This document shows, piece by piece, positions 4,561 through 45,185 of a DNA stretch of 64,000 nt; position 1 is the first letter of the stretch; every line of letters begins with the position of its first letter. A model generated the notes under the pieces. The model was not told where the DNA came from and did not search any database. It saw nothing but the letters and a program-made list of their open reading frames with translations. Made by a program: the position numbers and the translations under genes. The DNA comes from Acidimicrobiales bacterium (GTDB taxonomy: Bacteria > Actinomycetota > Acidimicrobiia > Acidimicrobiales > GCA-2861595), in assembly GCA_035536185.1 (NCBI GenBank), contig DATLOM010000018.1, positions 135,865 through 199,864 of the forward strand. The letters are read 5' to 3'.

Positions 4561-4926
4561 TCAACCGGCCAGGCGCATCTTCCGGCGGCCGCGGTTTGCC
4601 ATCACGAGGGCCCCGGCGGCGCCAGCGGCGGCCGTGGCCACCGCTATGCCGCCCAGGTAGGCGCCCCGCCGGCCAGCCAGCAGCGAGCGCATCGCACCTC
4701 GCTCGCCGGCCGCCTCGAGGTTGGCGAGGATGGCCGTGAGCGTGCCGGGAGCCGGCTGGAGAACGTCGGTACGCAGGTGGCGCAGCGCCTTCAGCAGCCT
4801 GCGGTACTGGACCAGCTCGGCCTGGCACCGCAAGCAGGCCTCGACGTGCGACCGAACCTGGGGATCGGCTTTCTCCGTGCCGTCGACGATCTGGGGCAGG
4901 AGGTCGGCGACGCGTTCACACCGCAT
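4561..4926 (-). CDS. Anti-sigma factor (zf-HC2 type, single C-terminal transmembrane segment)
   Basis: It starts at the internal ATG 4926 (MRCERVADLL...). The HxxxCxxC motif is HVEACLRC. The transmembrane segment is AYLGGIAVATAAAGAAGALVMA. It overlaps the 3' end of the sigma gene by 11 nt. Confidence 0.7.
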   Translation of the reverse strand: MRCERVADLLPQIVDGTEKADPQVRSHVEACLRCQAELVQYRRLLKALRHLRTDVLQPAPGTLTAILANLEAAGERGAMRSLLAGRRGAYLGGIAVATAAAGAAGALVMANRGRRKMRLAG

Positions 4927-5503
4927 GAGCGGTCTCCTCGCCGGTGAGCTCGCTCCGGAGGGGGAAGAGACGCTCCCGGAGCTTCTTGCGGGCCCGGTGC
5001 AGGCGGACCTTGGCCGCACCCTCGCTGATCCCGAGCTCGGCGGCGATGGCCTCGTGGGGAAGGTCGTAGATGTCCCGCAGCACCACGACGGCGCGCATCT
5101 CGGGTGACAGGCTCTGGAGGGCGGACTGCAGGATCCGCCGGTCGTCGCCGGCCCCCAGATGAGCGCCGGGGTCGCTGTCGACCGCCCTGGGGTCGGCCGC
5201 CGTCTCCTCGTCGCCGAGCTCGTCGTGGCGGTCCTTGGCCCGCCGTGACAGGTGGGTCACCGCGCAGTTGGCGGTGATCCGGTAGAGCCAGGTGTTGAAC
5301 TTGGCGTCGCCGCGAAAGCGCTTCAGGCCCTTCCAGGCCCGCAGGTAAGCCTCCTGCACCACGTCTTTCGCATCCTCCTCGTTGCCGGTCATCCGGAAGG
5401 CGAGGGTGTAGGCGTCGGCGTGTGTGACACGCACCAACTCCTCGAAGGCCGCCTGGTCGCCCGCTTTGGCCGCGGTGACCAGGTCAGCCAACTCCTGCGC
5501 CAT
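4916..5503 (-). CDS. ECF (sigma-70 family, group 4) RNA polymerase sigma factor
   Basis: The listed ORF is trimmed to ATG 5503 (MAQELADLV...). Region 2 shows DVVQEAYLRAWKGLKRFRGDAKFNTWLYRITAN. Region 4 shows REIAAELGISEGAAKVRLHRARKKL-like sequence. Confidence 0.85.
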   Translation of the reverse strand: MAQELADLVTAAKAGDQAAFEELVRVTHADAYTLAFRMTGNEEDAKDVVQEAYLRAWKGLKRFRGDAKFNTWLYRITANCAVTHLSRRAKDRHDELGDEETAADPRAVDSDPGAHLGAGDDRRILQSALQSLSPEMRAVVVLRDIYDLPHEAIAAELGISEGAAKVRLHRARKKLRERLFPLRSELTGEETAHAV

Positions 5504-5703: not shown

Positions 5704-5734
5704 CTGGCAACTCTACTTTCTCGTTCCCTGCGAG

Positions 5735-5808
5735 TAGCGGCGGTCGGATTCGAACCGACGACAACACGATTATGAGCCGTGTGCTCTAACCAACTGAGCT
5801 ACGCCGCC
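5735..5808 (-). tRNA. tRNA-Met (anticodon CAT; elongator-type acceptor stem, and a lysidine-modified tRNA-Ile is not excluded)
   Basis: Hand-folded cloverleaf: GGCGGCG-TA-GCTC-AGTTGGTTA-GAGC-A-CACGG-CTCATAA-TCGTG-TTGTC-GTCGG-TTCGAAT-CCGAC-CGCCGCT-A. Confidence 0.8.
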
Positions 5809-5812
5809 GCGG

Positions 5813-5885
5813 AGCCCTCTGTGGGAATTGAACCCACGACACCAGCCTTACCATGGCTGTGCTCTACCGACTGAGCTAAGAGGGC
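5813..5885 (-). tRNA. tRNA-Thr (anticodon GGT)
   Basis: Hand-folded cloverleaf: GCCCTCT-TA-GCTC-AGTCGGTA-GAGC-A-CAGCC-ATGGTAA-GGCTG-GTGTC-GTGGG-TTCAATT-CCCAC-AGAGGGC-T. Confidence 0.85.
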
Positions 5886-5914: not shown

Positions 5915-6418
5915 GTGCCCGATTCCTCTCCCCTCGTTCGTCCCGCGGCCTTCGCGGACGCCGAGGCCATCCGCCTCATCTACAACCGGGAGGTCACTTC
6001 CTCGCTGGTCACCTTCGATCTGGTGCCGCGGACCCTGGAGGACCAGCATGCGTGGCTGGACGCCCATGCCGGCGCCCACCCGGCGGTGGTGGCGGTGAAG
6101 CTGGGCGAGGTCGTGGGCTTCGGCTCGCTGTCGCCCTACCGGGAGCGCCCCGCCTACGCCACCACGGTGGAGGACTCGGTGTACGTCCGCGAGGACCAGC
6201 GTGGTGAGGGTGTAGGGCGGCTGCTGCTCGAGGAGCTGGTGCGCCTGGCCCGGGCCCACGGCTTCCACGCCATGATGGCCCGCGTCGTCGGTGGCCACGA
6301 GGCGTCGATCGGCCTCCACCGCGCCTGTGGCTTCGAGCTGGTGGGCGTCGAGCGTGAAGTGGGACGGAAGCTGGGGCGTTGGCTGGACGTGGTGCTGATG
6401 CAGCGCCTTCTCAGCTGA
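5915..6418 (+). CDS. GNAT-family N-acetyltransferase (phosphinothricin-acetyltransferase-like)
   Basis: 167 aa containing IRPA..ADAEAIRLIYN, the acetyl-CoA motif RGEGVGRLLLEELV, and C-terminal HRACGFELVG. Confidence 0.8.
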   Translation: MPDSSPLVRPAAFADAEAIRLIYNREVTSSLVTFDLVPRTLEDQHAWLDAHAGAHPAVVAVKLGEVVGFGSLSPYRERPAYATTVEDSVYVREDQRGEGVGRLLLEELVRLARAHGFHAMMARVVGGHEASIGLHRACGFELVGVEREVGRKLGRWLDVVLMQRLLS

Positions 6419-8108
6419 TCCGGGCGCCCAGGACGGCGATGTCGTCGTTGGTCCGGTGGGGCACCATGTCCGAGATCACCTTCTCGCACAAGCCGTCGAC
6501 CCCCTCGGCTAGCCCTTCCACGGCCGAACCCACGACCTCGATCAGGCGGTCGAGCCCGTCCTGAAGGGCATCGGTCCGCGATTCCACCAGCCCGTCGGTG
6601 AAGAAGACCAGCACCGACCCCGGCTCGACGGCGAAGGTGGACGAAACGAACGCCTGCTCCAGCATCGTCCCCAGCGGCACATTGGGTTCGAGGTGCAGGT
6701 AGCGGGGGTGCCCGGCCGGAGGGACCAGGAGGGGCGGTGGGTGGCCGGCGCTGATCATCTCGACTTGGCGAGTGCCCAGGTCCACCACCACGTACACCGC
6801 GGTGGCCATGGCCGAGCCGGTGAGCTCCTGGAGGAGGCGGTCGAGGCTCGTCATGAGCTCGGCCGGCTTCAGGCCGTGAACGGCGTAGGCCCTGATCGCG
6901 GTACGGAGCTGGCCCATGACCGCCGCCGCCCTGGTCCCGCGCCCGACCACGTCACCCACCACCAGCGCCACCCGGCCGTCGTCGAGGGGGAACACGTCGT
7001 ACCAGTCGCCACCGACCTGGGTGCCGAGGCTGCCGGGCTGGTAACACGCGGCCAGCGCCAGGCCCGGCACCTTCGGCATCTCGTCGGGGAGCAGGCTGCG
7101 CTGCAACGTCTCGGCGATGCGGTGCTCGTGCTCGTAACGCTCGGCGTTCTCGATGGCGACGGCCGCCAGCTGCGCGAGCTGGACGAGCACCACCTCGTCC
7201 TCCTCGGTGAAGTCACCTTCGATCTTGTCCGCCACCTGGATCAGGCCCAGCATGCGTCCGGTGCGGCCCTTGAGGGGCACCGCCAGCCAGCCCTCCAGCA
7301 TCGGGTGCGAGCCGGTCAGGTCGAACAGGCCCCTGGAGACGAAGCTGGCCTCGATCTCCTTCTTGGTCATCCGCACCGGCTCGTCCCGCTCGTACACCAC
7401 GCTGTAGATCCCCGAAAGATCGGCCCGATCCGGGTCGCCGGACCAGCCCTCGTACTTCGGTGAGAACGAGCGGGAACGCTCCAGGTCCCCCGCCTCTCGC
7501 GCCGCGGTGATCACCGTCTCGGACTCGTGGGCGCCGATCACCTCACGGGCCCCGTCGTTGATGACCTGCAGGATCTCGTCGAGCGAGAGCGTCGAGTTGA
7601 TGACGACGGCAGCGTGGGCCAGCTTCCTGAGGTTCCGCGCTTCGGTTTCGAAGCGCTGGTCGAGGCGCCGGGCCAGCAGCTCACTCTGCCGGCGCAGCTC
7701 CTGGGTCTTCTGGTACAGCTCGATGAACACCCTCACCTTGGCCTGGAGCAGGCCGACCTCGAACGGCTTGGTGACGTAGTCCACGGCGCCATGGGAAAAT
7801 CCCTGCATGGCGTGCACGGCGTCCTTGCTGTACGCCGTGAGGAAGATGATCGGGATGTCCCGGTTGCGCTCGCGATCCTTGATCCGAGTCGCCGTCTCGA
7901 ACCCGTCCATCTCCGGCATCTGCACGTCGAGAAGGATGAGGGCGACGTCGTGGACGAGAAGTCGCTTCAGTGCCTCTTCCCCCGAGCCGGCGCACAGCAG
8001 GTTGTGACCCAACGGCTCGAGAACCGCCTCCAGGGCGATGAGGTTCTCGGGCCGGTCGTCCACCAGCAGGATGGTGGCCGGCACCTCGTCGTAGGCGGGA
8101 CGCGTCAT
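6411..8108 (-). CDS. Response-regulator receiver / GAF / PP2C (SpoIIE, RsbU-like) protein phosphatase
   Basis: Trimmed to ATG 8108, which forms an ATGA overlap with the upstream stop. REC shows ILLVDDRPENL...LLDVQMPEMDGFE...TKP. A GAF-like middle region follows. PP2C shows VGGDWYDVF, VVGDVVGRG and FTDGLVE. Confidence 0.85.
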   Translation of the reverse strand: MTRPAYDEVPATILLVDDRPENLIALEAVLEPLGHNLLCAGSGEEALKRLLVHDVALILLDVQMPEMDGFETATRIKDRERNRDIPIIFLTAYSKDAVHAMQGFSHGAVDYVTKPFEVGLLQAKVRVFIELYQKTQELRRQSELLARRLDQRFETEARNLRKLAHAAVVINSTLSLDEILQVINDGAREVIGAHESETVITAAREAGDLERSRSFSPKYEGWSGDPDRADLSGIYSVVYERDEPVRMTKKEIEASFVSRGLFDLTGSHPMLEGWLAVPLKGRTGRMLGLIQVADKIEGDFTEEDEVVLVQLAQLAAVAIENAERYEHEHRIAETLQRSLLPDEMPKVPGLALAACYQPGSLGTQVGGDWYDVFPLDDGRVALVVGDVVGRGTRAAAVMGQLRTAIRAYAVHGLKPAELMTSLDRLLQELTGSAMATAVYVVVDLGTRQVEMISAGHPPPLLVPPAGHPRYLHLEPNVPLGTMLEQAFVSSTFAVEPGSVLVFFTDGLVESRTDALQDGLDRLIEVVGSAVEGLAEGVDGLCEKVISDMVPHRTNDDIAVLGARIS

Positions 8109-9232
8109 CGGCCCGGCGCCGGAAGTGTGAACCGCACGGTCACACCACAATCGTCGTTGCTCTCCATCCATATGCGTCCTCCGGCCCGCTCCACGACCTT
8201 TCGGCACACGGCCAGGCCGAGCCCCGTGCCCGGGTAGGGATCGCCTTCCAGCCGCTCGAACACCTGGAACACCTGCTCGAGCCGATCGTTCGGCACCCCG
8301 CGGCCGTGATCCCGGACCGACACCGTCACCATCCCGTCCTGCTGGCGGGAACTGAGCTCCACCACGGGCGCGACATCTGGCTCGTGGAACTTGATGGCGT
8401 TGCCGACGAGGTTCTGGAAGACCTGGGTCAGGTCGGGCGCGCTGCCCATGGCGTAGCCGAGGGGCGTGCGCCTCAGGTCGACCGGGCGATCCTCGGGCCC
8501 CTGCGACAGGTTCTGCAGCGCCGTGTGGAGTGCGGCGTCCAGATCCACGGGTTCGAGGGGTGCGGGGTCCACACCGGCGCGGGCGTAGACGAGTAGGTCC
8601 GATATGAGCGCGGACATCCGCTCGGCCGTGGAGCTGACCCTCGACATCCACTCGCGGGCCTGGGGATCGTCGTCGCCGAGGCGGTCGGCGAGCAGCTCGA
8701 TGAAGCCGGAGATCACCCTCAGAGGGTCCTGAAGATCATGGGAGGCGATGTAGGCGAACTGCTCGAGGTCCTGGTTGGAGCGCTCGAGCTCTGCCTTCTG
8801 CTGGGCCAGCTGGTGGCGTTGCTCCTGCAGCATCCTGGTGTTCAGGTACAGCTCGAGGAAGACGGCCACCTTGGCCCGCAGAACCTCGGGCTCGACTGGC
8901 TTGAAGATGTAGTCGACGGCGCCGGTGCCGTAGCCACGCAGGCGATTGTCCAGGCCCTGGCTGATCGCGGTGAGGAAGATGATCGGGATGTCGCGCGTCC
9001 GATCCCGCTGCTTGATCTGCTCGGCCGTCTCGAAACCGTCTATGCCCGGCATCTGGACGTCCAGCACGATGACGGCGATGTCGTCGGCCAGCAGGTGGCG
9101 CAGGGCCTCCTCGCCCGAGCTCGCCCGCACCATCCGCTGGCCCAGTGGCTCCAGGACCGCCTCGAGAGCGAGGAGGTTCTCGGGCCGGTCGTCCACCAGC
9201 AGCAGGGCCGGCGCCGGCCCGCCGGGCGTCAT
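8105..9232 (-). CDS. Receiver-histidine kinase fusion (REC-HisKA-HATPase_c)
   Basis: Trimmed to ATG 9232, which forms an ATGA overlap with the cheB stop. REC shows LLLVDDRPENL..VLDVQMPGIDGFE. The H-box is FAYIASHDLQDPLR. The N/G boxes are NLVGNAIKF and GTGLGLAVCRKVVE. Confidence 0.85.
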   Translation of the reverse strand: MTPGGPAPALLLVDDRPENLLALEAVLEPLGQRMVRASSGEEALRHLLADDIAVIVLDVQMPGIDGFETAEQIKQRDRTRDIPIIFLTAISQGLDNRLRGYGTGAVDYIFKPVEPEVLRAKVAVFLELYLNTRMLQEQRHQLAQQKAELERSNQDLEQFAYIASHDLQDPLRVISGFIELLADRLGDDDPQAREWMSRVSSTAERMSALISDLLVYARAGVDPAPLEPVDLDAALHTALQNLSQGPEDRPVDLRRTPLGYAMGSAPDLTQVFQNLVGNAIKFHEPDVAPVVELSSRQQDGMVTVSVRDHGRGVPNDRLEQVFQVFERLEGDPYPGTGLGLAVCRKVVERAGGRIWMESNDDCGVTVRFTLPAPGR

Positions 9233-9798
9233 GACCGCCCCAGGTCGTTGAGCACCTCGGTGATCCGGTCGAGGGGCAACACCTGGTCGACGGCACCCGT
9301 GGCGATGGCAGCCTCGGGCATCTCCCGACGTACGGCGGTGAGGGGATCCTGGGCGAGCGTGACCCCACCCCGTCGCTTCACCTGCCGGATGCCGCGGCAG
9401 CCGTCGTCGTTGGAGCCGGTGAGGATCACCGCCACAGACTCGTCGGCGTACGCATCCGCCGCCGACTCGAACAGCACGTCTATCGACGGGCGGCTGTATT
9501 GCACCGGCGCGTCGATCGACAGCGCGAACCGACCTGGTTCCACGAGCAGGTGGTAGTCGGCCGGCGCCAAGTACACCCGACCGGGCTCGATCGCGTCCTT
9601 GTCCTCGGCCTCGGAGACCGGAAGGCTGCACCGGGCCTGGAGGTAGCTCACCAGAGCACCCTCGGGAGAGTTGGCCGCACGATGCAACGCGACGGCCAGG
9701 GCAAAGCTGCACCCCTCCTCCAGCAGGGCCACCACCTTCCCCAAGGCGTCGAGACCGCCCCACGAGCCGCCCACCACCACCAGCCGGAAAGACGTCAA
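9229..9798 (-). CDS. cheB: Protein-glutamate methylesterase catalytic domain only (CheB without a receiver domain)
   Basis: The sequence shows VVVGGSWGGLDAL...LTGSNDDGCRGIRQVKRRGGVTLAQD. The likely TTG start at 9798 overlaps the cheR TGA. The listed 425-aa ORF is mostly out-of-context run-on over cheR. Confidence 0.75.
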   Translation of the reverse strand: MTSFRLVVVGGSWGGLDALGKVVALLEEGCSFALAVALHRAANSPEGALVSYLQARCSLPVSEAEDKDAIEPGRVYLAPADYHLLVEPGRFALSIDAPVQYSRPSIDVLFESAADAYADESVAVILTGSNDDGCRGIRQVKRRGGVTLAQDPLTAVRREMPEAAIATGAVDQVLPLDRITEVLNDLGRS

Positions 9799-10619
9799 AG
9801 GATCCTCCGGTACACCTTCTCGTGGCCGTCGATCTCGGCGTAGGCGTCGGCGTGGCTGGTGAAGCGGATCGACTCCTTGTGGCCGAGGGCGAGGATGCCC
9901 GAACGGGCGAGGCTCCTGTGGAAGAGCCCGTGAACCTTGTCCTGCAGGGCCCGGTCGAAGTAGATCATCACGTTCCGGCACATGATCAGGTTGAACTCGT
10001 TGAACGAAGCGTCGGACACCAGGTTGTGCTGGGCGAAGACGGCGTTCTCCAGCAGAGTCGGGTCGAAACGGGCGCGGTCGCCGTACACCTTGTAGTAGTC
10101 GGAAAAGGAGCAGCGGCCGCCGTAACGGAGGTAGTTCTGGGTGAACTCCTGCATGCGCTCGAGGGGAAAGAGCCCTTCCTTGGCCCGCTGCACCACGGTG
10201 CCGTTGATGTCGGTGGCATAGATCCTGGTCCTGCCGTCCAGCCCCTCTTCGCGCAGCAGGATGGCCAGAGAGTAGGTCTCCTCGCCCGTCGAGCAACCAG
10301 GATTCCAGATGCGAACGAACGGATAGGTGCGGAGGAGCGGGACGACCTTGTCGCGAAGGGCGGCGTAGAAGGTCGGGTCCCGGAACATCGAGGTCACGTT
10401 TATGGAGAGGTCGAGCAGGAGCCGTTCCATGCAGGCGGAGTCGTGGAGCACCCGTTCCTGCAGGCCCGACAGCGTGGCCAAGCCCTCCTCCATCATGCGC
10501 CGCCACATCCGGCGCTTGATGGAGGCCCGGGCGTATTCACGGAAGTCGTAGCCGTAGTGGTGGTAGATGGCGTCGAGCAGCAACCGGAGCTCGAGCGCCT
10601 CCAGGTCTTCCCCGGGCAC
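9795..10619 (-). CDS. cheR: Protein-glutamate O-methyltransferase CheR
   Basis: 274 aa containing TSMFRDP, RIWNPGCSTGEETYSLAILL and CRNVMIYF. Confidence 0.9.
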   Translation of the reverse strand: MPGEDLEALELRLLLDAIYHHYGYDFREYARASIKRRMWRRMMEEGLATLSGLQERVLHDSACMERLLLDLSINVTSMFRDPTFYAALRDKVVPLLRTYPFVRIWNPGCSTGEETYSLAILLREEGLDGRTRIYATDINGTVVQRAKEGLFPLERMQEFTQNYLRYGGRCSFSDYYKVYGDRARFDPTLLENAVFAQHNLVSDASFNEFNLIMCRNVMIYFDRALQDKVHGLFHRSLARSGILALGHKESIRFTSHADAYAEIDGHEKVYRRIL

Positions 10620-10625
10620 GGGCTG

Positions 10626-17357
<6,732 letters not shown>

Positions 17358-17493
17358 CGCGTAGTCCTTCCGGGCTGATCCTCGTACCTACCGGTCGGTC
17401 GTCGCGTCTGCTCCACGGCGCCGTACCGCGCACCTGGGAAGGGTACCCCTGCCGGTTCCGCCAGGGACCGGCGCGCCAGGGCAGAATGGAGGG

Positions 17494-18297
17494 ATGACGG
17501 CCGACGCCTTCCGGGTGGTCGTCGCCGACGACTCCGTCGACATGAGGGATCTGCTAAGCGCCGCACTGGAGGCGACAGGTCGGTTCGAGGTGATCGCCCG
17601 GTGTGGCGACGGCACCGAAGCCCTCGAGGCCGTAAGGGACCAGCAGCCCGACCTCGCCCTGCTGGACCTGGGGATGCCCAACGTCGGGGGGATCGAGGTC
17701 CTTCCGGACCTGGTGGCCGCCTCGCCGCGCAGCCGGGTCATCGTGGTGTCCGGCTTCCCGAGGGGCCGGCTTGCCCACCTGACGCTTTCCCAGGGTGCGG
17801 TCGGCTACGTGGAGAAGAGCCTGTCGGCCAAGGCCATGGTCGACGACATCGTCTCGGTGGCGGGAATGATCGAGGCGGTTTCGTGGGCGCTGGCCGAGAA
17901 CCGGGCCCATCTCGAGAGGGACCCCCGCAGCAGTGCCGCCGCCCGTCGCTTCGTGGAGGAGACGTTGAGGCGATGGGAGTGCGACGACCTGCTGGACACG
18001 GTGAACCTCCTGGTTTCGGAGCTGGTCACCAACTCCGTCGTCCATGCCGACTCCGCGGCCGAGGTCGCCGTGCTGCTCAAGCCCCACGCCATACGCATCG
18101 AGGTCGCCGATCGGGGCCAGGCCGCTCTGGCGGTGCAGGAAGCCGACGAGACGGCCACTTCCGGGCGGGGCCTCGCCCTGGTGGAGGCCCTCTCCTCGTC
18201 CTGGGGTGTGGTCCCCGGCCACGATGGCAACACGGTGTGGTTCGAGGTACCCCGCCCGGACACCATGCCGCCCCGGCCGAGGATGGTGGCGCCGTAA
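17494..18297 (+). CDS. Receiver domain fused to an RsbW/SpoIIAB-like anti-sigma serine kinase (HATPase_c_2) domain
   Basis: REC shows VVVADDSVDMRDLL...LLDLGMPNVGGIE..VVSGF. The C-terminal part shows ARRFVEETLRRW..LLVSELVTNSVVHA...GRGLALVEALSSSWGV. Confidence 0.75.
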   Translation: MTADAFRVVVADDSVDMRDLLSAALEATGRFEVIARCGDGTEALEAVRDQQPDLALLDLGMPNVGGIEVLPDLVAASPRSRVIVVSGFPRGRLAHLTLSQGAVGYVEKSLSAKAMVDDIVSVAGMIEAVSWALAENRAHLERDPRSSAAARRFVEETLRRWECDDLLDTVNLLVSELVTNSVVHADSAAEVAVLLKPHAIRIEVADRGQAALAVQEADETATSGRGLALVEALSSSWGVVPGHDGNTVWFEVPRPDTMPPRPRMVAP

Positions 18298-18564
18298 CGC
18301 AACGCGCCGACTGAACCATCCCAGCGGCACTCCAAAGCTGGGAGCGGTGTCGGCCCTGGCCGTCGAATCCGGGCCTCGGCCGCGAGCGATGATCGAGACG
18401 CGGTAATGAGCGGCCCTTTCGGGGGCGAGGCCACGTTCAAGGACTGCCGGGCGATGCATAGAGGGCCAAAACAGCCAGACCTGGGACACGTCGCGGTTTG
18501 GATAACGATCGCCACTCGAGCAGGGTCGTCGGGGGCGCCGGGAGGCGCGCAGGCGCCCAATTAG

Positions 18565-18576
18565 GAACATCTGTTC
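18565..18576 (+). promoter_or_regulatory. LexA-type SOS box (GAAC-N4-GTTC) followed directly by a TATACT -10-like hexamer
   Basis: GAACATCTGTTC (with flanking G..GA) lies at 18565-18576. TATACT lies at 18579-18584. This is 45 nt upstream of the HNH gene ATG 18629, which has the RBS GGGAGG. Confidence 0.6.
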
Positions 18577-18628
18577 GATATACTTGGGCACAGGAAAAAC
18601 GCGAAGCCGAGTCGTGGGAGGCAGACGA

Positions 18629-20486
18629 ATGGGTGCACAGATTGACGTTGTCCGGGAGGCGGCAACCGAGGAGGTCCCGCTCGAGTACCTGGAGCGGGAG
18701 ATCTGCCAGCTGGGCAGCAACATCGCGGCGGCGACCTGCCGCTGGCTCATGCTGCTGGCCGAGTTCGACCGGCGCCAGGGCTGGGCGGTGTGGGGCGCCC
18801 GCTCGTGTGCCGAATGGCTCAGCTGGCGCTGTGGTGTCGGGGCCGTCGCCGCTCGTGATCATCTGCGGGTGGCGCACCGCCTCGGTGAGCTGAAGCTGGT
18901 GAGGGCGGGATTCGCCGCCGGCGAGCTGAGCTTCTCCAAGGTGCGCGCCATCAGCCGAGTCGCTACCGCCGAGACCGAGGCGACCCTGGTCGAGCTCGCC
19001 CGCCATGCCACCGCCAACCACATGGAACAGATCGCCCGTGCCTATCGGGGGCTCAAGCGCCGGATGGCCAAGGACGGGAAGGGCAAGGACCAGAAGGACG
19101 CCGGATACCTGCACTGGTACTGGGACGACGACGGGTACCTGGTCATCGTGGGCCGGTTCCCCCCCGAAGAGGGCGCCGTCTTCATACAGGCGCTCAACGC
19201 GGCCAGAAGTGCGCTGGCCGGCGAGCCCGAGAAGGATGAGCCGAGCGCCGACGATTCCGCGGAATCGCTGCCCACATCGCCCTTTCCCACCGATCGTCAC
19301 GATTCCGCGGAATCGTTGACCTCGTCGGGCGATCAGGCTGCTCCCAATGATTCCGCGGAATCGGGGCCCTCGTCGCCCGATCAGGCCGCTCCGGACGATT
19401 CCGCGGAATCGCTGGCCTGGCCGGCCGAACACAGCGGTCGCGATGACCTTGCGGAATCGCAGACCAGGGACCCGCGCGATTCCGCGGAATCCTGGACGCC
19501 GCCGGCCGGTGCCACAGAGGGTCCCGCTGCAGCGACAGGTTCCGGCGATTCCGCGGAATCGCGTTTGGGCAACGCCGGGGGACGATTCCGCGGAATCGCT
19601 GTGGGCCGAGGAGGACGAGGAGTACCTCAACGGGTACTGGATGGTGCCCGAGGATGAAGAGTCCGGCGAGCTCATTTGGGTGGCCGGAGAGGTGCCAGAA
19701 GATGACGATTCCGCGGAAGCGGCCCCTGCGTGCCCCGGAGACAACGACCCAAGCGCACGAGCGCCCGCCGCAACCAGACGCGATTCCGCGGAATCGCGAC
19801 CGACCGCAGCAGATGCCCTCCTGTCCATGGCCGAGACGATGCTCCGCTACGGGCCCCAGGCCCGGGACGGCGGTGACCGCTACCAGGCCGTGGTGATCGT
19901 CGACGCCGAGGTCCTGGCCGGCGACGGACCTGGGCGCTGCGAGATCGACGACGGGCCGGCCATAGCTCCTGAGACCGCAAGGTTCATCACCTGTGACTCC
20001 AGCCTCGTGTTCACCATCCTGGGTGCCGGCGGTGAGCCGCTCAACGTGGGACGAAGCACCAAGACGATCCCCAGGGCCATTCGCCGGGCCCTCAGGCTGC
20101 GCGACGGGAAGTGCCGCTTCCCCGGCTGCACCCAGCGCCGCTTCGTCGACGGCCACCACATCCAGCACTGGTCACAAGGGGGCGAGACGTCGCTCGAGAA
20201 CCTCGTCCTGCTGTGCCGCGTCCACCACCGCAAGGTCCACGAGCAGAAGTTCGCCGTCCGCTACGACGGCGGCACCAAGTTCACCTTCACCCGCCCCGAC
20301 GGCACCCTGATCCCCGAGGCCCCGACCGCAGTCCCCGCGCTCGAGGGCCACGTCGTCAAGGCTAACCGGCAGCTCGGCCTCAGCATCGGCCCCGACACCG
20401 CAAGCAGCCTGTGGGCCGGCGAGCAACTCGACCTCGCCATGGTCATGGATGGCCTTCTCGTCCTGGAGGCCCGCAACCTCAACTAG
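18629..20486 (+). pseudogene. DUF222 / HNH endonuclease (REP13E12-like), interrupted by a +1 frameshift near 19576-19581
   Basis: The N-terminal DUF222-like part (ICQLGSNIAAATCRWLMLLAEFDRRQGW...FSKVRAIS) is in the frame of ORF 18584-19657. The C-terminal HNH part (CRFPGC...DGHHIQHWSQGGETSLENLVLLCRVHHRKVHE) is in the frame of ORF 19347-20486. The frames switch between palindrome copies 7 and 8. Confidence 0.8.
19252..19796. repeat. Ten copies of the perfect palindrome (C)GATTCCGCGGAATC(G) inside the HNH gene
   Basis: Copies start at 19253, 19301, 19349, 19397, 19445 (degenerate), 19478, 19547, 19584, 19707 (degenerate) and 19782. The first five are exactly 48 bp apart. Each is read as DSAES in frame. 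Confidence 0.9.
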
Positions 20487-21221: not shown

Positions 21222-21281
21222 AAATGGTGGGGCCGCGCAGGGATTTTAAACCTACGTAGGCTGTGCCGACAGATTTGCAGT
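21222..21281 (-). repeat. Degenerate copy of the 3' ~60 nt of tRNA-Tyr (att-like remnant)
   Basis: aaatggtggggccgcgcagggattttaaacctacgtaggctgtgccgacagatttgcagt aligns with 26451-26510 of the intact tRNA-Tyr, with a few substitutions and indels. It has no 5' half. Confidence 0.75.
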
Positions 21282-21459
21282 GGGCGAGGAAGTCTGCGAT
21301 CGCCCACAGCAGGCCCGGTGACCTGGCTCTTATCGGCAGGATCACCCGACCCGCCACGTGTGATTCGTGTGGGATCGGCGACCGCGTCGGCGCACGGCCG
21401 TCTGGTCGCAAAGCGCGATGCGGCAACCGCTTATGGAGCGGCAATACGCGGAAGGACGC

Positions 21460-22353
21460 TCAGCGGCTGAGATGGGCGGTGACGTTGCCGGCGTCATCGA
21501 CCCCGTACACGTCGAGTTGCAGAGTCCGCCGGATCGCCTCTGGTACGCGAAGGGCACCGGCGACGTGACGTTCCGGTACGACGATCGCGTAGCGCACGCC
21601 GTCGCTGTCGTCGCTCATGCGCCGGAGTAGCTGTCCATACCCGGTGTCGATGTCGAGGTTCGGCGCCAAAGTCGAGCCCTTTGCCTCCGCCACCAGGCGC
21701 TCGACCCCTCGGGTCGCGACGACATCGGCCCAGTCGACCTCCGTCTCGACGTCCCATCCCCGCGAGCGCAACCACGTTGAGAAGCCTGCGACGACGACGG
21801 CCTCGCTCGGTCCGGTTGTGGCGTTCCGGCTCGTCCGCCGGCGGGCGCTCTGGAGCAATGGGACCGGGTCGAAAGGGACGAGCGGCGTGGAGCGCCCCAG
21901 GCGTTGTGGATGGCGGGGGTGGCCCTTGCTCGTGGTCCCAAAGCACCACAGCTGGTGGGAGGCGACGAACCGGAGCACCGATGTTACGCGATCCGAGAAA
22001 TGTGATCCCTGCTCGCCCCAGCCAACGACGATGATGTCGGCGTCGCGCAGGTGTCGTGCGATCGTGGCGTCATTGTCCGGCCCGACGGGATCGGGATGCG
22101 ACCGCAAGAGCGCGGGGTCGGTGGTCCGAAGGGCGAACAGGTTGACGATCGTGACCGTTCCGACGGAGTGTTTTGGGATGGACACGGCGAACCGGAGCAC
22201 CGCGGCAACGGTGGGGTCGTCGCTGGTCTCGTCAGCGGTAGAGGGGTTGAGCAAGACGAGCACGGCCTGCGCGCCGTTTCCCAGCGTGCGCGTGAGGTCG
22301 TAACGGTAGATCCCATCGTCACTGATGGTCGCCGTCCGCTCCACGCCCCACAT
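21460..22353 (-). CDS. DUF1643-like N-terminal domain fused to a PD-(D/E)xK-type (restriction-endonuclease-like) C-terminal domain
   Basis: The N-terminus shows VLLNPSTADETSDDPTVAAVLRFA...VNLFALRTTDPALL. The C-terminus shows GWDVETEVDWADVVATRGVERLVAEAKG, which fits the D...E-x-K pattern. Confidence 0.6.
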   Translation of the reverse strand: MWGVERTATISDDGIYRYDLTRTLGNGAQAVLVLLNPSTADETSDDPTVAAVLRFAVSIPKHSVGTVTIVNLFALRTTDPALLRSHPDPVGPDNDATIARHLRDADIIVVGWGEQGSHFSDRVTSVLRFVASHQLWCFGTTSKGHPRHPQRLGRSTPLVPFDPVPLLQSARRRTSRNATTGPSEAVVVAGFSTWLRSRGWDVETEVDWADVVATRGVERLVAEAKGSTLAPNLDIDTGYGQLLRRMSDDSDGVRYAIVVPERHVAGALRVPEAIRRTLQLDVYGVDDAGNVTAHLSR

Positions 22354-22815
22354 TGTTACCGATCCTCAGCTGTCAGTGGCGATAGGTACGGACGAATTCG
22401 AAGCGGCTACGCGAAGCGCCGATGCGCCGATCGGTCCGGCTTCGGGCAGTCGGGGCACACCGGGTCAAGCGGCTGATAGTGGTGTCCCTGACTGGCATCT
22501 CGGGGCGATGCCCCACGTTGTTAGGCATGCACGTTCGGGGACACCCGTCGCCCGCCCTGCCACGCCAGAGCCGTCGTTCGGTCGCGACGATCGCCTTTGG
22601 GCAGCGTCTTGGTCTCGGAAGTCCCAGTCCGACACGATTACGTCATCGACGACGGTGGATGTTCGCTTGCGGATGCCGTCAGCTCCGGCGGTCCGCTGGG
22701 CCTTCTTCGGCGTGTCAAGCGGGCCGCGATCGGGGCGGCGGGCCGCAGCCGGCAAAAACGGTGCCAGGCACCGCTAATCAGTTGGCGTAGGAGGATTACG
22801 CCGTAGTCTCGATCC

Positions 22816-23472
22816 GTGGCGAGGGTCTACGTGTTCGGCGACGAAGCCGGCAATCTCGACTTCAAAGTGGCGAAAGGCGCCAGCAAGTACTTCATCGTAT
22901 GCAGCGTCACGATGCCGGACTGTGGCGCGGGGGATGACCTAATGGAGCTTCGACGGGAGCTCGCGTGGCAAGGAGTAGCCCTGGAGTCGACCTTCCACGC
23001 TACCGAGGACAAGCAGGTCGTGCGGGATGAGGTCTTTCGGCTTCTCGCCGACGTCGACCTCCGGGTGGACGCCACCATCCTCGAAAAGCGGAAGGCTCTG
23101 CCTCGCCTGCAGCAGGACAAGGAGCACTTCTACAAGTTCGCCTGGTACTACCACTTCAAGCATGTCGCCCCAAGGATCGCTTCTAGCAAGGACGAGCTGC
23201 TGGTTGTCATCGCCTCCATCGGAACGAAGAAGCGCCGCAAGGGCATTCGCCTCGGCATCGAGGACGTAATCTGGCAGTCGAGCCGGACAACCACTTGGGA
23301 GGTCGCATTCTGGCCCGCAGAGAGCGACCCATGCCTGCAGATCGCCGACTACTGCACGTGGGCTGTCCAGCGAAAGTGGGAGGCCAACGACGACCGGTCG
23401 TACCAGATCATCAAGCCGAAGATCCGCTCCGAGTACAACCTGTGGAGCGCAGGCACGACCTACTACTACTGA
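22816..23472 (+). CDS. DUF3800-family protein
   Basis: It shows VYVFGDEAGNLDF at the N-terminus and CLQIADYCTWAVQRK near the C-terminus. It uses a GTG start with no clear RBS. Confidence 0.6.
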   Translation: MARVYVFGDEAGNLDFKVAKGASKYFIVCSVTMPDCGAGDDLMELRRELAWQGVALESTFHATEDKQVVRDEVFRLLADVDLRVDATILEKRKALPRLQQDKEHFYKFAWYYHFKHVAPRIASSKDELLVVIASIGTKKRRKGIRLGIEDVIWQSSRTTTWEVAFWPAESDPCLQIADYCTWAVQRKWEANDDRSYQIIKPKIRSEYNLWSAGTTYYY

Positions 23473-23733
23473 GAGAGGTTCCCCAGCCAACTAGCGCTGC
23501 GGCAGAGCCCAGGGGCTCTTTCATCGGCTGAGCAACCTCACGCCCACCCTAGCAACAGCGTGGGACGACGCACGGGGATGGTCAGCTCTGAACGCCTCGT
23601 CGAAGGGCCGGGAACTTCGCCTCCAGCGCCTTCACGGTCAATCTTGCTGAGTGGTGGATCGTCGCAATCAGGAAGCGATAGCGCGCTGGGCGGGCGATCT
23701 AGGTCGACTCGCAGCGTCTTGGAAGGCGACGGG

Positions 23734-24687
23734 TCAGATGGTTCCAGGGCCCGTGGGGTCGATGCGTCCAGCCAGTGTATCGGCAATAGGGCCGTCCTGG
23801 CGCAGCGGATCGACCTCCTTCATCAAGTAGTCCGGCGGGAAGTCAAGGTTTCGCGTGCCGGCAATCTCGTGCACGGGGTACATGCAGTAGATGCCGTCGC
23901 CCAGCAGCTCTCCGGCCTCGTTCCGACGAAGGTTGCCGGTCGATCCCGAAAAGATGAAGCCGGGTTTCGATTCGTACCCATGCTCTGCGTCGTCCGGCCT
24001 CTCATCCTCGGCGGCGGGCGAGATCGAGTACTGCGTATAAAGCTCGATCCCTAAGAACCCTGGAAGCTCGCACTTCGCGTGCGGCAGGAGCACTCGGAGC
24101 TCAAGGACCGCTTTGGCAGGGTGAAAGACCCGGATGACGGGTCGGCCATTCGCGTCCAGTCGGATGAACCGGCGCCAAAGCGGCGGGAAGTAGTAACCCT
24201 CCAGCGATAGGACGTCAGCATCGTCGAGGCGCGTCACGTCCGCGTCGTCAAAGACGACTGTGTCGGCACTCTCAGTCGTCTCAGGCACGAAGTCCTCGAA
24301 CCTCGTGAGGGCCAGCCCGAAGGCGGGCCCGCGGATCGGATCCCAAAACGGCCAGGTCATCACCCCCATCCCGCGGATCGTGCCGTCCGCTTCTCGGCCA
24401 GAGACGAGTCCTGCACCTGAGAACTGCATGAACCCGTCGGGATGGTGGGAGAGCTTGATCTCCTTGTCCTCGGCTGCCGCCCCAGCGAGGTCGACCGCCT
24501 CCTCCAGCGGGACTTCCATCTGCTGCTTTGCGTAGTTCACCGTCATCTTGACGAACTGCGCCTTCTCTTCTGGATGGATTGGTGCCGTGACGTAGTACGA
24601 GCCGTCCGCGCCGTACACGATGCGGGTGAGCCGGTAGAGCTTGCCTTCGTGGCGATATGCAACGCGATACGAACTCCTGCCAGGCAT
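23734..24687 (-). CDS. Hypothetical protein with no family recognised
   Basis: The ORF has coding-like composition. I prefer the internal ATG 24687 (MPGRSSYRVAYRHEGKLY...) over the listed 24888 start, but the start remains uncertain. Confidence 0.4.
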   Translation of the reverse strand: MPGRSSYRVAYRHEGKLYRLTRIVYGADGSYYVTAPIHPEEKAQFVKMTVNYAKQQMEVPLEEAVDLAGAAAEDKEIKLSHHPDGFMQFSGAGLVSGREADGTIRGMGVMTWPFWDPIRGPAFGLALTRFEDFVPETTESADTVVFDDADVTRLDDADVLSLEGYYFPPLWRRFIRLDANGRPVIRVFHPAKAVLELRVLLPHAKCELPGFLGIELYTQYSISPAAEDERPDDAEHGYESKPGFIFSGSTGNLRRNEAGELLGDGIYCMYPVHEIAGTRNLDFPPDYLMKEVDPLRQDGPIADTLAGRIDPTGPGTI

Positions 24688-25167
24688 GGACCCCAGGATC
24701 GCACACCATAAATGGGTTCCGTTGTGGACCCGGCTCACAGAATCGGCGATCTGCTCGCAGGTCGTGACCCGCGGCGGTGTCCCAGAACGCGCTGCGACAC
24801 TCGGTTCTCTACAGATGCCCCCCAACGCCGGATGAAGGTCCCGGGTCGAAACGAAGCCGGTGTGGATGGCCGTGGCTCGGGTCCCCACCGGACGCCCGAG
24901 TCGAGTTGAGCGACTGGACGGCTGACCTGGCTCCGGGTCGTCGGTTGCTGGAGGTGGCCCGCCATGCCTACTTCGCCTTCACCATCACCATCACCATCTA
25001 CACCCTCGTCATGCCGAGCCTCCGCAGCGAAGCGGCCGACCTCATGGACGGGGTGCTCCGACCACCTGCTGAAGCGCCGGATCCTCAAGTGGCTACAAAA
25101 GTGGCTACAAAAGGCCTTGGCCGCGACCCCCCGGGAATGGCCTGAAACGCGAAACTGCTGGTCATCG

Positions 25168-25184
25168 AATGGTGGGCCGGGCAG
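25168..25184. repeat. 17-bp direct repeat AATGGTGGGCCGGGCAG, identical to the tRNA-Tyr 3' end at 26452-26468
   Basis: There is an exact match at both flanks of the IS element. Confidence 0.9.
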
Positions 25185-26451
25185 TGTGGGATCCCATGAC
25201 ATAGGCGACAGCTGTGTCAAGACATAGGAGACACCGAGCAGGAGGGTCTTCCTATGGAGCTAGGGCGGTATCTGGTCGAGGCACATCTTCGGGAGGGTCG
25301 CTCGGTCACTGAGCTGGCCGCAGCCCACGGGATCCACCCCAGCTGGATCTACAAGCTGTTGGGCCGCTACCGAGAACACGGCGAAGCGGGGCTGGCGGCG
25401 CGATCACGCCGGCCACGCTCGTCGCCGACCCAGGTGGCAACCGAGCTCGAGGACGAGATCGTGTTGCTGCGCAAGCAGCTCTTCGAGGAGGGCCTCGACG
25501 CCGGTGCGGTGACCATCCACTGGCACCTGAGCCGACGCCACCCCGAGGTGCCCTCGGTGAGCTCGATCTGGCGGGTCCTCAAACGCCGGGGCTTTGTTGT
25601 TCCACAGCCCAAGAAGCGGCCACGCTCGTCGTTCGTCCGCTTCGAGGCCGAGCTGCCCAATGAGACCTGGCAGTCAGACATGACGCACTGGTCCCTGGCC
25701 CACGGCACCGGGGTGGAGATCGTCAACTTCATCGACGACCACAGCCGGCTGTGCTTGGCCTCTGTGGCGCGGGCGGTGGCCCGGGCCACCGATGTGGCTG
25801 AGATCTTCATCGCCGCAGCTCAGCGCTACGGGACCCCGGCCTCGGTGCTCACCGACAACGGCTGCATCTACACCGCCAAGCACCGGGGCGGCAAGGTCGT
25901 CATGGAGACCCTGCTCGAGACCCTCGGGGTGACCTACAAGCACTCGAGCCCCTATCACCCCCAGACCTGCGGCAAGGTCGAGCGCTTCCACCAGACCGAA
26001 AAGAGGTTCCTGGCCAAACAGCCCGGTGCCGCTGATCTGGCCGAGCTGCAGGCCCAGCTCGATCGCTTCGTGGCCTACTACAACGCCTCCCGGCCTCATC
26101 GGGCCCTGGGGCGGCGAACCCCGGGGGAGGTCTTTGAGGCCAAGGTCAAAGCCCGGCCCCGCCACCACGTCCCCAACACCCACTTCCGGGTCCGCCACGA
26201 CAAGGTCGACAAGACCGGCTGTGTGACCTTGCGCTATGAGAGCCGGCTTCTCCACATCGGCATTGGTCGAGCCCACACCGGCGAGCGGGTTCTGATGCTC
26301 ATCGCCGATCGAGACGTGCGGGTGGTGAGCGAGAACGGCGAACTCATCCGCCAGCTGACCATCGACCCCACCCGTGACTACCAACGCCGCCGGTGAAGCC
26401 GATGTCTACGATGTCTCGCGACATCTGTCTCCGATGTCTCGCGACATCACA
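25185..26451 (+). mobile_element. IS481-family insertion sequence (1267 bp)
   Basis: It carries a single rve/DDE transposase gene. Imperfect ~50-bp terminal inverted repeats both begin with TGTG and share GACAT(A/C)GGAGACA modules (about 28 of 38 matched by eye). It is flanked by the 17-bp direct repeat. Confidence 0.75.
25254..26396 (+). CDS. IS481-family transposase (HTH + integrase-core DDE domain)
   Basis: 380 aa containing ETWQSDMTHW, FIDDHSR, LTDNG and SPYHPQTCGKVERFHQT. Confidence 0.85.
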   Translation: MELGRYLVEAHLREGRSVTELAAAHGIHPSWIYKLLGRYREHGEAGLAARSRRPRSSPTQVATELEDEIVLLRKQLFEEGLDAGAVTIHWHLSRRHPEVPSVSSIWRVLKRRGFVVPQPKKRPRSSFVRFEAELPNETWQSDMTHWSLAHGTGVEIVNFIDDHSRLCLASVARAVARATDVAEIFIAAAQRYGTPASVLTDNGCIYTAKHRGGKVVMETLLETLGVTYKHSSPYHPQTCGKVERFHQTEKRFLAKQPGAADLAELQAQLDRFVAYYNASRPHRALGRRTPGEVFEAKVKARPRHHVPNTHFRVRHDKVDKTGCVTLRYESRLLHIGIGRAHTGERVLMLIADRDVRVVSENGELIRQLTIDPTRDYQRRR

Positions 26452-26453
26452 AA

Positions 26454-26538
<85 letters not shown>

Positions 26539-43736: not shown

Positions 43737-45185
43737 GTGACACTGGCGACCAGAGCGAAAAGACAATCACCCGGCTTTCGCTGGAACCCCCCCTTCCGGC
43801 GGGCGGCGGGTGTGGTCGAGGTGGACTTCGAGACGCCACCGAGGGCGCGGGCACGGTCGGGACAGCGGCTTGCCGTCGTTCGGCTGCTCCCGGTCCTGTT
43901 GGACTCGGCCTGCCTGGCCGTTGCGTGGCTGGCCGTCGTCGCCGTGCTGGGAACGCCGAGCTCGATGGAGACGGCGTCGTTCACCGGTTTCGCCATCGCC
44001 TCGATGATCGTCGCCGGCCTCATCCACGCCTTCATGGGGCTGTACGCCGCAGGTCCCGCCGCCCTGGGCATCATCGACGTCACCAACGTCGTACGCGCCT
44101 CGCTGGGCTGGGGCACCCTCGCCGCCGGCGCCGCGTTCCTGATCGAGCCGCCCATCCCGCAGGCATGGGTGGCCCTGTCCTGCCTCTTCGGCTGCGTGCT
44201 CGTCGCCGCCACCAGGCGGGCCCTGTGGCACTGGTGCCCCGACCACGGCAAGAGCCTGTACGGCCGCCCTTCACCGGCCGATCCGGACGTTCGCCTGGGG
44301 TACGACATGGGCCGCCTCCGGAAGCGCTACATGGTGATCGCGGCCATGGGAGGACGGCGGCAGCGTTGCCAGGAGGTGCTCAAGCGGGGCGTCGACCTCG
44401 TCCTGACGCCCGTGATCATCGCCTTCACGTTGCCGGTCATGGCTGTGGCCGCGCTCGTGATCCTCGTGAGCGAGGGCCGGCCCATCCTGTTCCGCCAGCG
44501 CAGGGTCGGGCGCAACGGGGTCCCGTTCACCATCTTCAAGTTCCGCACGATGGTGCCGGATGCCGAGAAGCAGCTGATCGACCTGCGCGAGCTCAACGAG
44601 CGGGACGGTCCCCTGTTCAAGCTGACCCACGATCCGAGGGTCACCCGTACCGGCCGGCTCCTCCGAGAATCGAGCATCGACGAGCTGCCCCAGCTGTTCA
44701 ACGTCCTCGTCGGGACCATGAGCCTCGTCGGGCCCCGGCCGGCGCTGGCGGACGAGACCGAGCTGTTCGAAGCGGACCTGCTGCGCCGGCACCACCTTCG
44801 CCCCGGGATCACCGGGCTCTGGCAGGTGCGCTCGCGGGACGACGCTTCCTTCGAGTCCTACCGGTACCTCGACCTCTGCTACCTGGAGAACTGGTCCGTC
44901 CTGACCGACATGGTCATCCTCTTCGCCACTGTGCCCGCCGTCCTCCGCCGTGGCTGGAGCCTCCTCCTGCGGGCGGCACCGGGCAACTCGTTCTCGGCAG
45001 GACGGCGCCTCATGGTCAGGCTCGGCCGTCGCCCGCAGGATGACGGTGGCGTCCTTGCTCCGGCCGGAGCGTCTCTCTTCCCCGCCGCCACCGCTTCAGC
45101 ACCGGGGGTGCGCGAGGTGATCCTGAGCTCGAGCCTGGACGTGGCCCTTCCTATGAACGAGGCGGGGCTCAGCCAAGGACGGTGA
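43737..45185 (+). CDS. Polyprenyl-phosphate sugar phosphotransferase (WbaP / Bac_transf-type priming enzyme)
   Basis: It has N-terminal transmembrane segments. It shows [54 protein letters not shown] and [10 protein letters not shown]. Confidence 0.85.

Follow-up and report, generated by a model that had tools for sequence, protein, structure and literature searches.

The signalling cassette at positions 6411 to 18297 of a 64,000-nucleotide stretch of Acidimicrobiales DNA (contig DATLOM010000018.1; the whole 64 kb are called the window here) was analysed and found to comprise a poly-HAMP hybrid histidine kinase gene, followed on the minus strand by genes for a CheR methyltransferase, a CheB methylesterase, a second kinase carrying a receiver (REC-kinase) and a REC-GAF-PP2C phosphatase, with a divergent gene for a receiver fused to an RsbW-like domain. 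The locus is probably, at a rough probability of 0.65, the form taken in Acidimicrobiales by a signalling module built around a methylatable hybrid kinase of the RsbK type, with a SigB/F partner-switching output encoded elsewhere. An earlier note on this DNA had proposed a soluble, methylation-adapted sensor feeding unlinked partner switching, which is largely supported by the homology to RsbK, RsbM and RsbY, by the linkage of CheR to kinases and by the gene order of one relative (locus L085), whereas the novelty attached to it is not. The core idea of a methylatable kinase was proposed in 2011 and demonstrated in Bacillus cereus in 2012–2015, so the system is not new in kind. The statement in the same note that no mechanistic description existed was wrong, as shown by B. 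cereus RsbM/RsbK/RsbY (PMC4574943, PMC12848376), Pseudomonas putida cfcABCDE (PMC4951495) and the poly-HAMP structures (PMC13446029). What sets the window apart is that a soluble 25-HAMP sensor is combined with CheR and CheB, that the RsbY-like phosphatase bears a GAF domain, that the RsbW-like protein is fused to a receiver and that the output module is unlinked.

Close relatives of the cassette proteins were found in a sigB cluster of Bacillota. Residues 1280–2243 of the window kinase were 39% identical over 693 amino acids (aa; E = 1e-137) to the RsbK orthologue of Neobacillus cucumis (locus L027), and the third C-terminal receiver (REC3) was 59% identical to the terminal receiver of the same protein. 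Similarly, the window CheR shared 53% identity with the RsbM orthologue of L027 and 50% with the CheR of a P. putida locus (L073), with weaker similarity to chemotaxis CheR structures (best match 5ftw, E = 1.5e-30). The PP2C protein was homologous to Neobacillus RsbY, with identities of 31% in the receiver and 25% in the PP2C domain (E = 2e-18 and 1e-17, respectively), and was matched by the RsbY PP2C domain in phmmer at E = 2.8e-13. Locus L027 contains genes for a STAS protein, RsbW, a sigma factor (regions 2–4), a REC-PP2C protein, a ferritin on the opposite strand, a CHASE3-HAMP-GAF-HisKA-HATPase-REC kinase and CheR, which is the layout of the B. cereus sigB cluster, and STAS-RsbW-SigB genes adjoin the cassette in at least seven further Bacillota loci. 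In B. cereus, RsbM methylates the signalling helix (S-helix) of RsbK and represses σB, and the receiver of RsbK is inhibitory (PMC4574943). RsbK acts through the REC-PP2C protein RsbY on RsbV, RsbW and σB, the RsbK-RsbY pair activating σB, and RsbK-like kinases have been reported in 10 phyla (PMC4574943, PMC12848376).

The distribution of this CheR subfamily was evaluated in a profile-free search of 1.84 billion representative proteins clustered at 50% identity, which returned 2,121 CheR clusters at E ≤ 1e-30. An alignment of 64 CheR representatives was then used to scan one genome per species; the 600 matches listed yielded at least 80 loci, which were mapped by phmmer with the window's own domains. 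The CheRs in at least 80 loci were 46–67% identical to the window CheR and spanned over 10 phyla; the taxa include Gemmatimonadota, Acidobacteriota, Cyanobacteria, Bacillota, Gaiellales, Myxococcota, Pseudomonas, Bacteroidota, Deinococcus and Verrucomicrobiota, among others. Among the matches listed, a GAF-coiled coil-kinase-receiver gene stands directly upstream of CheR in 64 of the 68 loci with enough upstream sequence, CheB directly downstream of it in 55 of 76 (the exceptions being mainly Bacillota), and a receiver-kinase gene after CheR/CheB in 36 of the 63 loci whose sequence continues for 4.5 kb or more past CheR; a poly-HAMP kinase followed by CheR, usually with CheB, was found in 14 of 80, and the flanks held one methyl-accepting chemotaxis protein (MCP) in total. 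The "orphan" CheR and CheB of the window are not puzzling, because this CheR subfamily adjoins a hybrid kinase with the same core in nearly all of these loci. The prediction of CheR/CheB for RsbK-type kinases reportedly goes back to de Been 2011. The genomic association of RsbK with CheR is likewise credited to de Been (PMC12848376).

Both modifying enzymes look catalytically active, in that the S-adenosylmethionine-binding motifs of CheR are intact and the Ser/His/Asp triad of CheB aligns with those of Thermotoga maritima and other CheB structures. The CheR is 100% identical to a protein from an Acidimicrobiales metagenome-assembled genome at NCBI. In CheB, Pfam recognised the methylesterase domain only, with no N-terminal receiver, and a CheA-style feedback is therefore missing; any adaptation would need substrate availability that depends on conformation. 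Close relatives of the CheR also occur as single-chain fusions (P0153, P0170, P0164, P0252 and others), either as CheR-CheB of ~470–510 aa or as CheB-CheR of ~530–570 aa. These fusions support the idea that, outside chemotaxis, the two enzymes form one functional unit.

The six open reading frames (ORFs) and their domains are given in Table 1; every domain call of the earlier note was confirmed by Pfam, and reading of the sequence likewise reproduced the junctions that it had described as one 6-nt gap and three start/stop overlaps. The kinase/CheR junction reads TGA-CAGCCC-GTG, the CheR/CheB junction is a TTGA overlap, and ATGA overlaps join CheB to the REC-kinase (9229–9232) and the REC-kinase to the PP2C gene (8105–8108). 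A GGAAGGA ribosome-binding site lies 7 nt 5' of the kinase ATG. The TTG of CheB is the least certain start in the operon, with GTG codons downstream; in an 88%-identical relative (L003), CheB is called with the same length of 189 aa and a 4-nt overlap. A scan of 5.7–18.6 kb, including the divergent intergenic region, gave no consensus sigma-70 promoter or terminator above chance. The G+C content across the window is 63–71%. In NCBIfam, no family reached its curated cut-off, except for the generic extracytoplasmic function (ECF) superfamily, matched by a neighbouring sigma factor.

Table 1. Genes, domains and intergenic region of the cassette, with the convergent neighbour (positions in the window).
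Feature	Position	Strand	Basis or remark
GNAT acetyltransferase gene	5915-6418	+	3' end overlaps the 3' end of the PP2C gene by 8 bp, convergent
REC-GAF-SpoIIE (PP2C) phosphatase, RsbY-like with inserted GAF	6411-8108	-	Pfam
REC-HisKA-HATPase_c second kinase, CfcD-like position	8105-9232	-	Pfam
CheB_methylest only, receiver-less methylesterase/deamidase type, 189 aa	9229-9798	-	Pfam
CheR_N + CheR, RsbM/CfcB-type protein-glutamate methyltransferase	9795-10619	-	Pfam
RsbK-type hybrid histidine kinase, 2243 aa, soluble	10626-17357	-	Pfam; no transmembrane segment
Three C-terminal receivers of the kinase, aa ~1855-2243	10629-11795	-	Pfam, three REC stretches
HisKA (1552-1619) + HATPase_c (1666-1789) catalytic core, aa 1552-1789	11991-12704	-	Pfam
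Coiled-coil signalling helix (S-helix), aa ~1450-1551	12705-13010	-	Heptad-spaced Glu-Glu pairs
Kinase GAF, aa 1306-1445	13023-13442	-	Pfam GAF_2, E 6e-18; aligns with GAF of RsbK orthologue
Poly-HAMP array, aa ~38-1290	13488-17246	-	13 canonical (GDL[ST]) + 12 non-canonical (GTW) HAMPs, 92-aa di-HAMP units
Divergent intergenic region, 136 bp, between kinase operon and REC-RsbW-like gene	17358-17493		Sequence reading
REC-HATPase_c_2, RsbW-like (anti-sigma / serine-kinase fold)	17494-18297	+	Pfam; divergent from operon

The hybrid kinase contains no segment hydrophobic enough for a membrane helix and is thus taken to be soluble. Pfam found 13 stretches each of HAMP and HAMP_2; the motif spacing was exactly 92 aa, with canonical and non-canonical HAMPs alternating and a degenerate pair at the N-terminal side. 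At the DNA level, a 276-bp unit is repeated in tandem 11.8 times, the copies showing 79% matches and zero indels. The di-HAMP units average 81% identity in protein and nucleotide alike, with ~21 synonymous and 18 non-synonymous codon differences. The length of the array as an assembly artefact or collapse was considered and rejected, since the longest exact run common to the units is 45 nt and synonymous differences between them are many. Kinase size varies among homologues, from 2243 aa in the window to 2151 aa in L003, which has exactly one unit fewer, and 1897 aa in the related locus L001. Loci L001 and L002 have an identical CheR and different upstream regions, with the 1897-aa kinase and a REC-RsbW-like gene in the former and a 1525-aa kinase and a Cys/Met-metabolism gene in the latter; this may be real variation or an assembly break within the poly-HAMP repeat. 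Among the kinase receivers, inspection of the sequence indicated that REC1 looks degenerate, without the usual acidic pair, and that REC2 and REC3 keep the acidic pocket, Asp, Thr and Lys.

For the helix between GAF and HisKA, 69 distinct CheR-linked kinases were compared in a gapless register fixed by the phospho-accepting His. Across them the H-box was essentially invariant, and hydrophobic positions recurred every seven residues from −16 to −86. Glu occupied positions −53/−52 in 78/80% of the kinases (Glu or Gln at −52 in 97%), −60/−59 in 70/81% and −88/−87 in 64/81%, the conserved pairs falling immediately before the heptad hydrophobic positions. The window kinase has Glu-Glu at all three positions (E1473/E1474, E1501/E1502 and E1508/E1509, relative to H1561), within EEL motifs at 1473, 1493, 1501 and 1508, and its helix runs uninterrupted into the H-box. 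These three pairs are candidate methylation sites, as judged from their conservation and spacing. In the Neobacillus RsbK orthologues, EEL is found at −74/−73, −67/−66 and −60/−59. Methyl-accepting chemoreceptors likewise show heptad-spaced acidic pairs on one face of a helix. The methylated residues of RsbK, for which Chen 2012 is said to be the primary source, are reportedly E439 and E446, which relative to H505 would fall at −66 and −59, each on the second Glu of a conserved pair.

The wiring behind the kinase was examined by comparing receivers. The REC-kinase and the PP2C protein have receivers that share 64% identity, against 23–45% for every other receiver pair in the cassette, and within each of four genomes these two receivers are 53–69% identical. 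As close paralogues, they point to a common phosphate donor, the big kinase, rather than to a chain. The phosphorelay of the earlier note keeps its receiver-coupled PP2C and RsbW-like outputs, in agreement with the homology to RsbK, RsbM and RsbY, and is more likely branched than linear. A linear relay from the kinase through the REC-kinase to the PP2C protein was considered and found less likely on the same ground. The RsbW-like protein has a receiver of another type, and the REC-kinase would be a candidate donor for it.

The C-terminal domain of the REC-RsbW-like protein was 43% identical to a receiver-less RsbW-like protein in the Egibacteraceae locus L084, which occupies the same divergent position, and the receiver is therefore regarded as a lineage-specific addition. 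The G1 ATP-binding box (DxGxG) is degenerate in the REC-fused proteins, which read DRGQA (window), DRGPV and DQAPE (L001), whereas the receiver-less L084 protein keeps an intact DPGPG. The closest solved relative, Mycobacterium tuberculosis Rv1364c, has DRGQW at this position, and its RsbW-like domain reportedly retains kinase function. The description of the window protein as an RsbW-like serine kinase consequently holds for the fold (Pfam HATPase_c_2), the serine-kinase activity being uncertain in view of DRGQA and DQAPE. The best NCBIfam match of its receiver (17494–17870) was the N-terminal receiver of CheB (E = 1.3e-19), the domain that the operon's own CheB lacks; this may be a coincidence.

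The partners of canonical systems were also searched for. Pfam on most other window ORFs gave no CheA, CheW, MCP signalling domain, Hpt or STAS, and phmmer searches of every six-frame ORF of the window, for which Tsr, CheW, RsbV, RsbW and SigB served as queries, gave no CheW, MCP, STAS or SigB partner, so the absence of CheA, CheW, MCP, Hpt and STAS previously noted was borne out within the 64 kb. The adjacent rsbV, rsbW and sigB genes of the RsbK/RsbM/RsbY module are absent, the RsbW-like domain being present solely as a receiver fusion. The reported absence of a sigma gene was literally wrong, since an ECF sigma factor lies together with a putative anti-sigma at ~4561–5500 (minus strand), ~1 kb past the PP2C gene, but it is not of the SigB/F type. 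This pair was rejected as the output, the sigma belonging to a class unsuited to an RsbW-type partner, having its own anti-sigma and being missing from the flanks of related cassettes. It is inserted between tRNA-Met/tRNA-Thr (5734–5885) and tRNA-Trp-secE-nusG-rplK-rplA.

Exact-sequence searches with the window's CheB and CheR and with the 100%-identical P0001 gave no recorded contig. The genomic context of the cassette was taken from the contigs of relatives, and a comparison of gene neighbourhoods, proposed in the earlier note, bore out the arrangement, which is kept in relatives with different flanks and across phyla. Contigs whose CheR is 72–89% identical have the same gene set and unrelated flanks. 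In L001 and L003, the REC-HATPase_c_2 gene is divergent from the poly-HAMP kinase, which is followed by CheR and CheB; in L001, L002 and L086–L088 the cassette continues with the REC-kinase and REC-GAF-PP2C genes, the latter being kept in L001, L002 and L084–L088. The cassette of Egibacteraceae (CheR 75% identical) lacks the REC-kinase gene. In L084, the receiver-less RsbW-like gene is divergent and upstream of the kinase, and in L085 the order is kinase, CheR, CheB, REC-GAF-PP2C, CsbD, RsbW-like and sigma (regions 2, 3 and 4; group 3), with no STAS gene near that cassette despite the RsbW-like and sigma genes. Judged by gene order, the arrangement is evidently more than chance.

The mechanism proposed on these grounds is as follows. 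A soluble dimeric kinase would take its input from a coiled-coil array of ~25 HAMPs and from GAF, and the signal would pass along the uninterrupted coiled coil of the S-helix to the DHp helix. The co-translated CheR would methylate Glu residues of the heptad-spaced pairs, with E1473/74, E1501/02 and E1508/09 as candidates, and the receiver-less CheB would demethylate them and may deamidate neighbouring Gln; together with the C-terminal inhibitory receiver or receivers, the two enzymes would set the gain or set-point of the kinase. The kinase would then phosphorylate the two paralogous receivers of the REC-GAF-PP2C protein and the REC-kinase in parallel, and the PP2C together with the divergent REC-RsbW-like protein would set the state of a partner-switching module for a SigB/SigF-type sigma factor whose gene lies in another part of the genome.

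Several points weigh against this proposal. A receiver-less CheB offers no obvious phospho-feedback by which true adaptation could arise, and in B. cereus no esterase is involved and demethylation was judged an unlikely activating step (PMC4574943). The output of the kinase family is not fixed, that of P. putida being a GGDEF/EAL response regulator. We know of no poly-HAMP kinase for which methylation has been demonstrated. The degenerate G1 box makes kinase activity of the RsbW-like protein doubtful, and co-transcription of the five genes is presumed from the gene overlaps. Finally, neither the 64-kb window nor the 10 kb around the cassette in the Acidimicrobiales/Actinomycetia-type relatives L001–L003 and L086–L088 showed a STAS, RsbV-like or SigB/F-type sigma gene.

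Alternative explanations were weighed against the same evidence. It is most improbable that CheR and CheB serve a canonical Che or Che-like pathway elsewhere, with MCPs as substrates and an incidental position in the operon: the 64 kb visible would allow a Che cluster in another part of the genome, and both enzymes keep all the chemotaxis catalytic motifs, but their subfamily adjoins RsbK-type kinases with the near-constancy described above and a single MCP in the listed flanks, and start/stop overlaps tie the genes to the kinase. Within the window there is neither CheA, CheW nor MCP, and CheB lacks the receiver through which CheA would control it. Furthermore, B. cereus RsbM methylates RsbK (PMC4574943), and P. 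putida has full Che systems, yet its homologous CheR/CheB are excluded from chemotaxis (PMC4951495). If the module is of the RsbK type, its output might still dispense with STAS, the REC-RsbW-like protein being a phosphorylation-controlled anti-sigma or binding protein that has lost kinase activity and the PP2C acting on another phosphoprotein. This would explain the missing STAS "switch protein" and is in line with the lack of STAS near any actinobacterial cassette, including Egibacteraceae with RsbW-like and sigma genes, and with a G1 box degenerate or lost in the REC-fused proteins and kept in the receiver-less orthologue. It is nevertheless considered unlikely, as STAS genes are often unlinked and the degenerate motif is not decisive, Rv1364c having a similar one and reportedly being active as a kinase. 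Moreover, SpoIIE-family PP2C proteins paired with RsbW-like proteins normally act on phosphorylated STAS (PMC4574943, PMC10950880).

An output other than sigma control, second-messenger or developmental as in CfcA-CfcR or AskA, with the PP2C and RsbW-like proteins as accessories, appears very unlikely. The outputs of the family do vary by lineage (PMC4951495; PMC13446029, with developmental phenotypes for AskA), and two cyclic di-GMP-I riboswitches are present in the same window, at 47–49 kb. On the other side, the scanned ORFs of the window include no GGDEF/EAL gene (in P. putida, too, CfcR is encoded apart from the cluster), six related actinobacterial loci keep PP2C and RsbW-like genes as partners specific to the cassette, and one relative (L085) joins the cassette to csbD, RsbW-like and sigma genes.

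With this assignment, an apparently odd CheR/CheB operon is placed in a very widespread family of RsbK/CfcA-type methylatable hybrid kinases, whose CheR subfamily counts more than 2,000 clusters in more than 10 phyla. The linkage of poly-HAMP kinases to CheR/CheB, with which they are usually encoded, is not drawn in the literature cited, and it makes methylation of the Glu-Glu heptads directly testable. Methylation of the Glu-Glu pairs would suggest how such arrays are tuned. The cassette also predicts that a cytoplasmic sensor is coupled to a general-stress sigma factor in uncultured Acidimicrobiales, and it can be viewed as a natural "split" version of the REC-PP2C-kinase regulators. A broader proposal is tentative and, on balance, somewhat unlikely: poly-HAMP kinases of the AskA type would be methyl-accepting as a class, modified reversibly by CheR/CheB on the coiled coil between GAF and DHp, which would lend a transcriptional stress response a chemotaxis-like adaptation or memory, and the REC-GAF-PP2C and REC-RsbW-like proteins of Acidimicrobiales (the latter possibly kinase-dead) would form a push-pull pair placing a SigB/F-type sigma factor under direct Asp-phosphorylation control with no adjacent STAS.

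Other features were observed in the surroundings. The distance from yajQ to the REC-RsbW-like gene is 163 bp in L003 and 8.2 kb in the window. Downstream of the latter gene, at least nine copies of a perfect 16-bp palindrome, CGATTCCGCGGAATCG, occur at 19248–19800 with irregular spacing of 37–123 bp, inside a DUF222...HNH endonuclease gene whose DUF222 (18506–19657) and HNH (19347–20486) parts lie in different frames; read in one frame or another, the array encodes repeats of DSAES or of IPRNR. A probable genomic island extends over 21245–26538 at tRNA-Tyr (26454–26538, minus strand), where a 37-nt direct repeat within the tRNA gene (26471–26507) has a 92%-identical copy at 21245–21281. The repeats bracket ~5.2 kb of lower G+C content (0.63–0.645) with DUF1643, DUF3800, an unknown 384-aa ORF and an IS481-family transposase. 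The two riboswitches mentioned above (47144–47218 and 49020–49094, minus strand) scored 55 and 53 bits, above the Rfam gathering threshold, and each immediately precedes a large ORF without a Pfam match (45169–47109, 646 aa, and 47309–48985, 558 aa), inside a polysaccharide-synthesis cluster (Bac_transf, Wzy_C, GT4, flippase and acyltransferase).

Among known systems, the cassette is close to RsbK/RsbM/RsbY of B. cereus (de Been 2010/2011; Chen 2012), with which it has in common a hybrid kinase composed of GAF, S-helix, HisKA, HATPase and an inhibitory receiver at the terminus, an adjacent CheR of the same subfamily, a REC-PP2C partner and conserved heptad-spaced Glu-Glu pairs in the helix leading to the H-box. 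It differs in its sensor, which is a soluble array of ~25 HAMPs in place of a membrane CHASE3-HAMP, and in having two extra kinase receivers, a CheB esterase, an extra REC-kinase gene, a GAF in the RsbY-like protein and a receiver-fused RsbW-like protein, with no adjacent rsbV-rsbW-sigB. The cfcABCDE cluster of P. putida, in which the CHASE3/GAF hybrid kinase CfcA (PP_3761) controls the unlinked REC-GGDEF-EAL protein CfcR via H496 (PMC4951495) and the CheR/CheB proteins encoded by cfcB/C were excluded from chemotaxis (PMC4951495, citing Garcia-Fontana 2013), has the same order of hybrid GAF kinase, CheR, CheB and receiver-containing protein, as found in L073 and other Pseudomonas loci. The receiver of CfcR resembles that of CfcD most closely (PMC4951495), so that there, too, a receiver of the cluster is paralogous to that of an output protein, as in the 64%-identical pair of the window. 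Its CHASE3 sensor, its diguanylate cyclase output encoded elsewhere and its lack of PP2C and RsbW-like genes are points of difference.

The sensor itself belongs, by its described architecture, with the soluble poly-HAMP-GAF-kinase-receiver family, for which crystal structures from Myxococcus xanthus AskA were published in August 2026, neither CheR nor methylation of the kinase being mentioned (PMC13446029). AskA/AskB and the fungal group III hybrid kinases similarly present soluble arrays of alternating canonical and non-canonical HAMPs in near-identical di-HAMP modules, followed by GAF, DHp, CA and one or more receivers, and the window kinase has 13 + 12 HAMPs with an exact 92-aa period; AskA is tied to development and not to PP2C or RsbW-like proteins (PMC13446029). 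On the output side, Mycobacterium smegmatis RsfS-RsfR offers an actinobacterial kinase that phosphorylates a REC-PP2C protein acting on a STAS antagonist in SigF partner switching, RsfR dephosphorylating the STAS protein RsfB (PMC10950880). RsfS is, unlike the window kinase, a simple CHASE3 kinase with no CheR/CheB partner, and phosphorylation lowers the phosphatase activity of RsfR, so the sign of regulation in the window cannot be assumed from this pair. A further comparison is with single proteins of the REC-PP2C-kinase type. Pseudomonas aeruginosa HsbR and Shewanella CrsR combine a receiver, PP2C and an RsbW-like kinase in one protein, which sets STAS phosphorylation below a hybrid-kinase phosphorelay, whereas the window splits these activities onto two proteins, each with its own unrelated receiver, and has no Hpt intermediary and no adjacent STAS.

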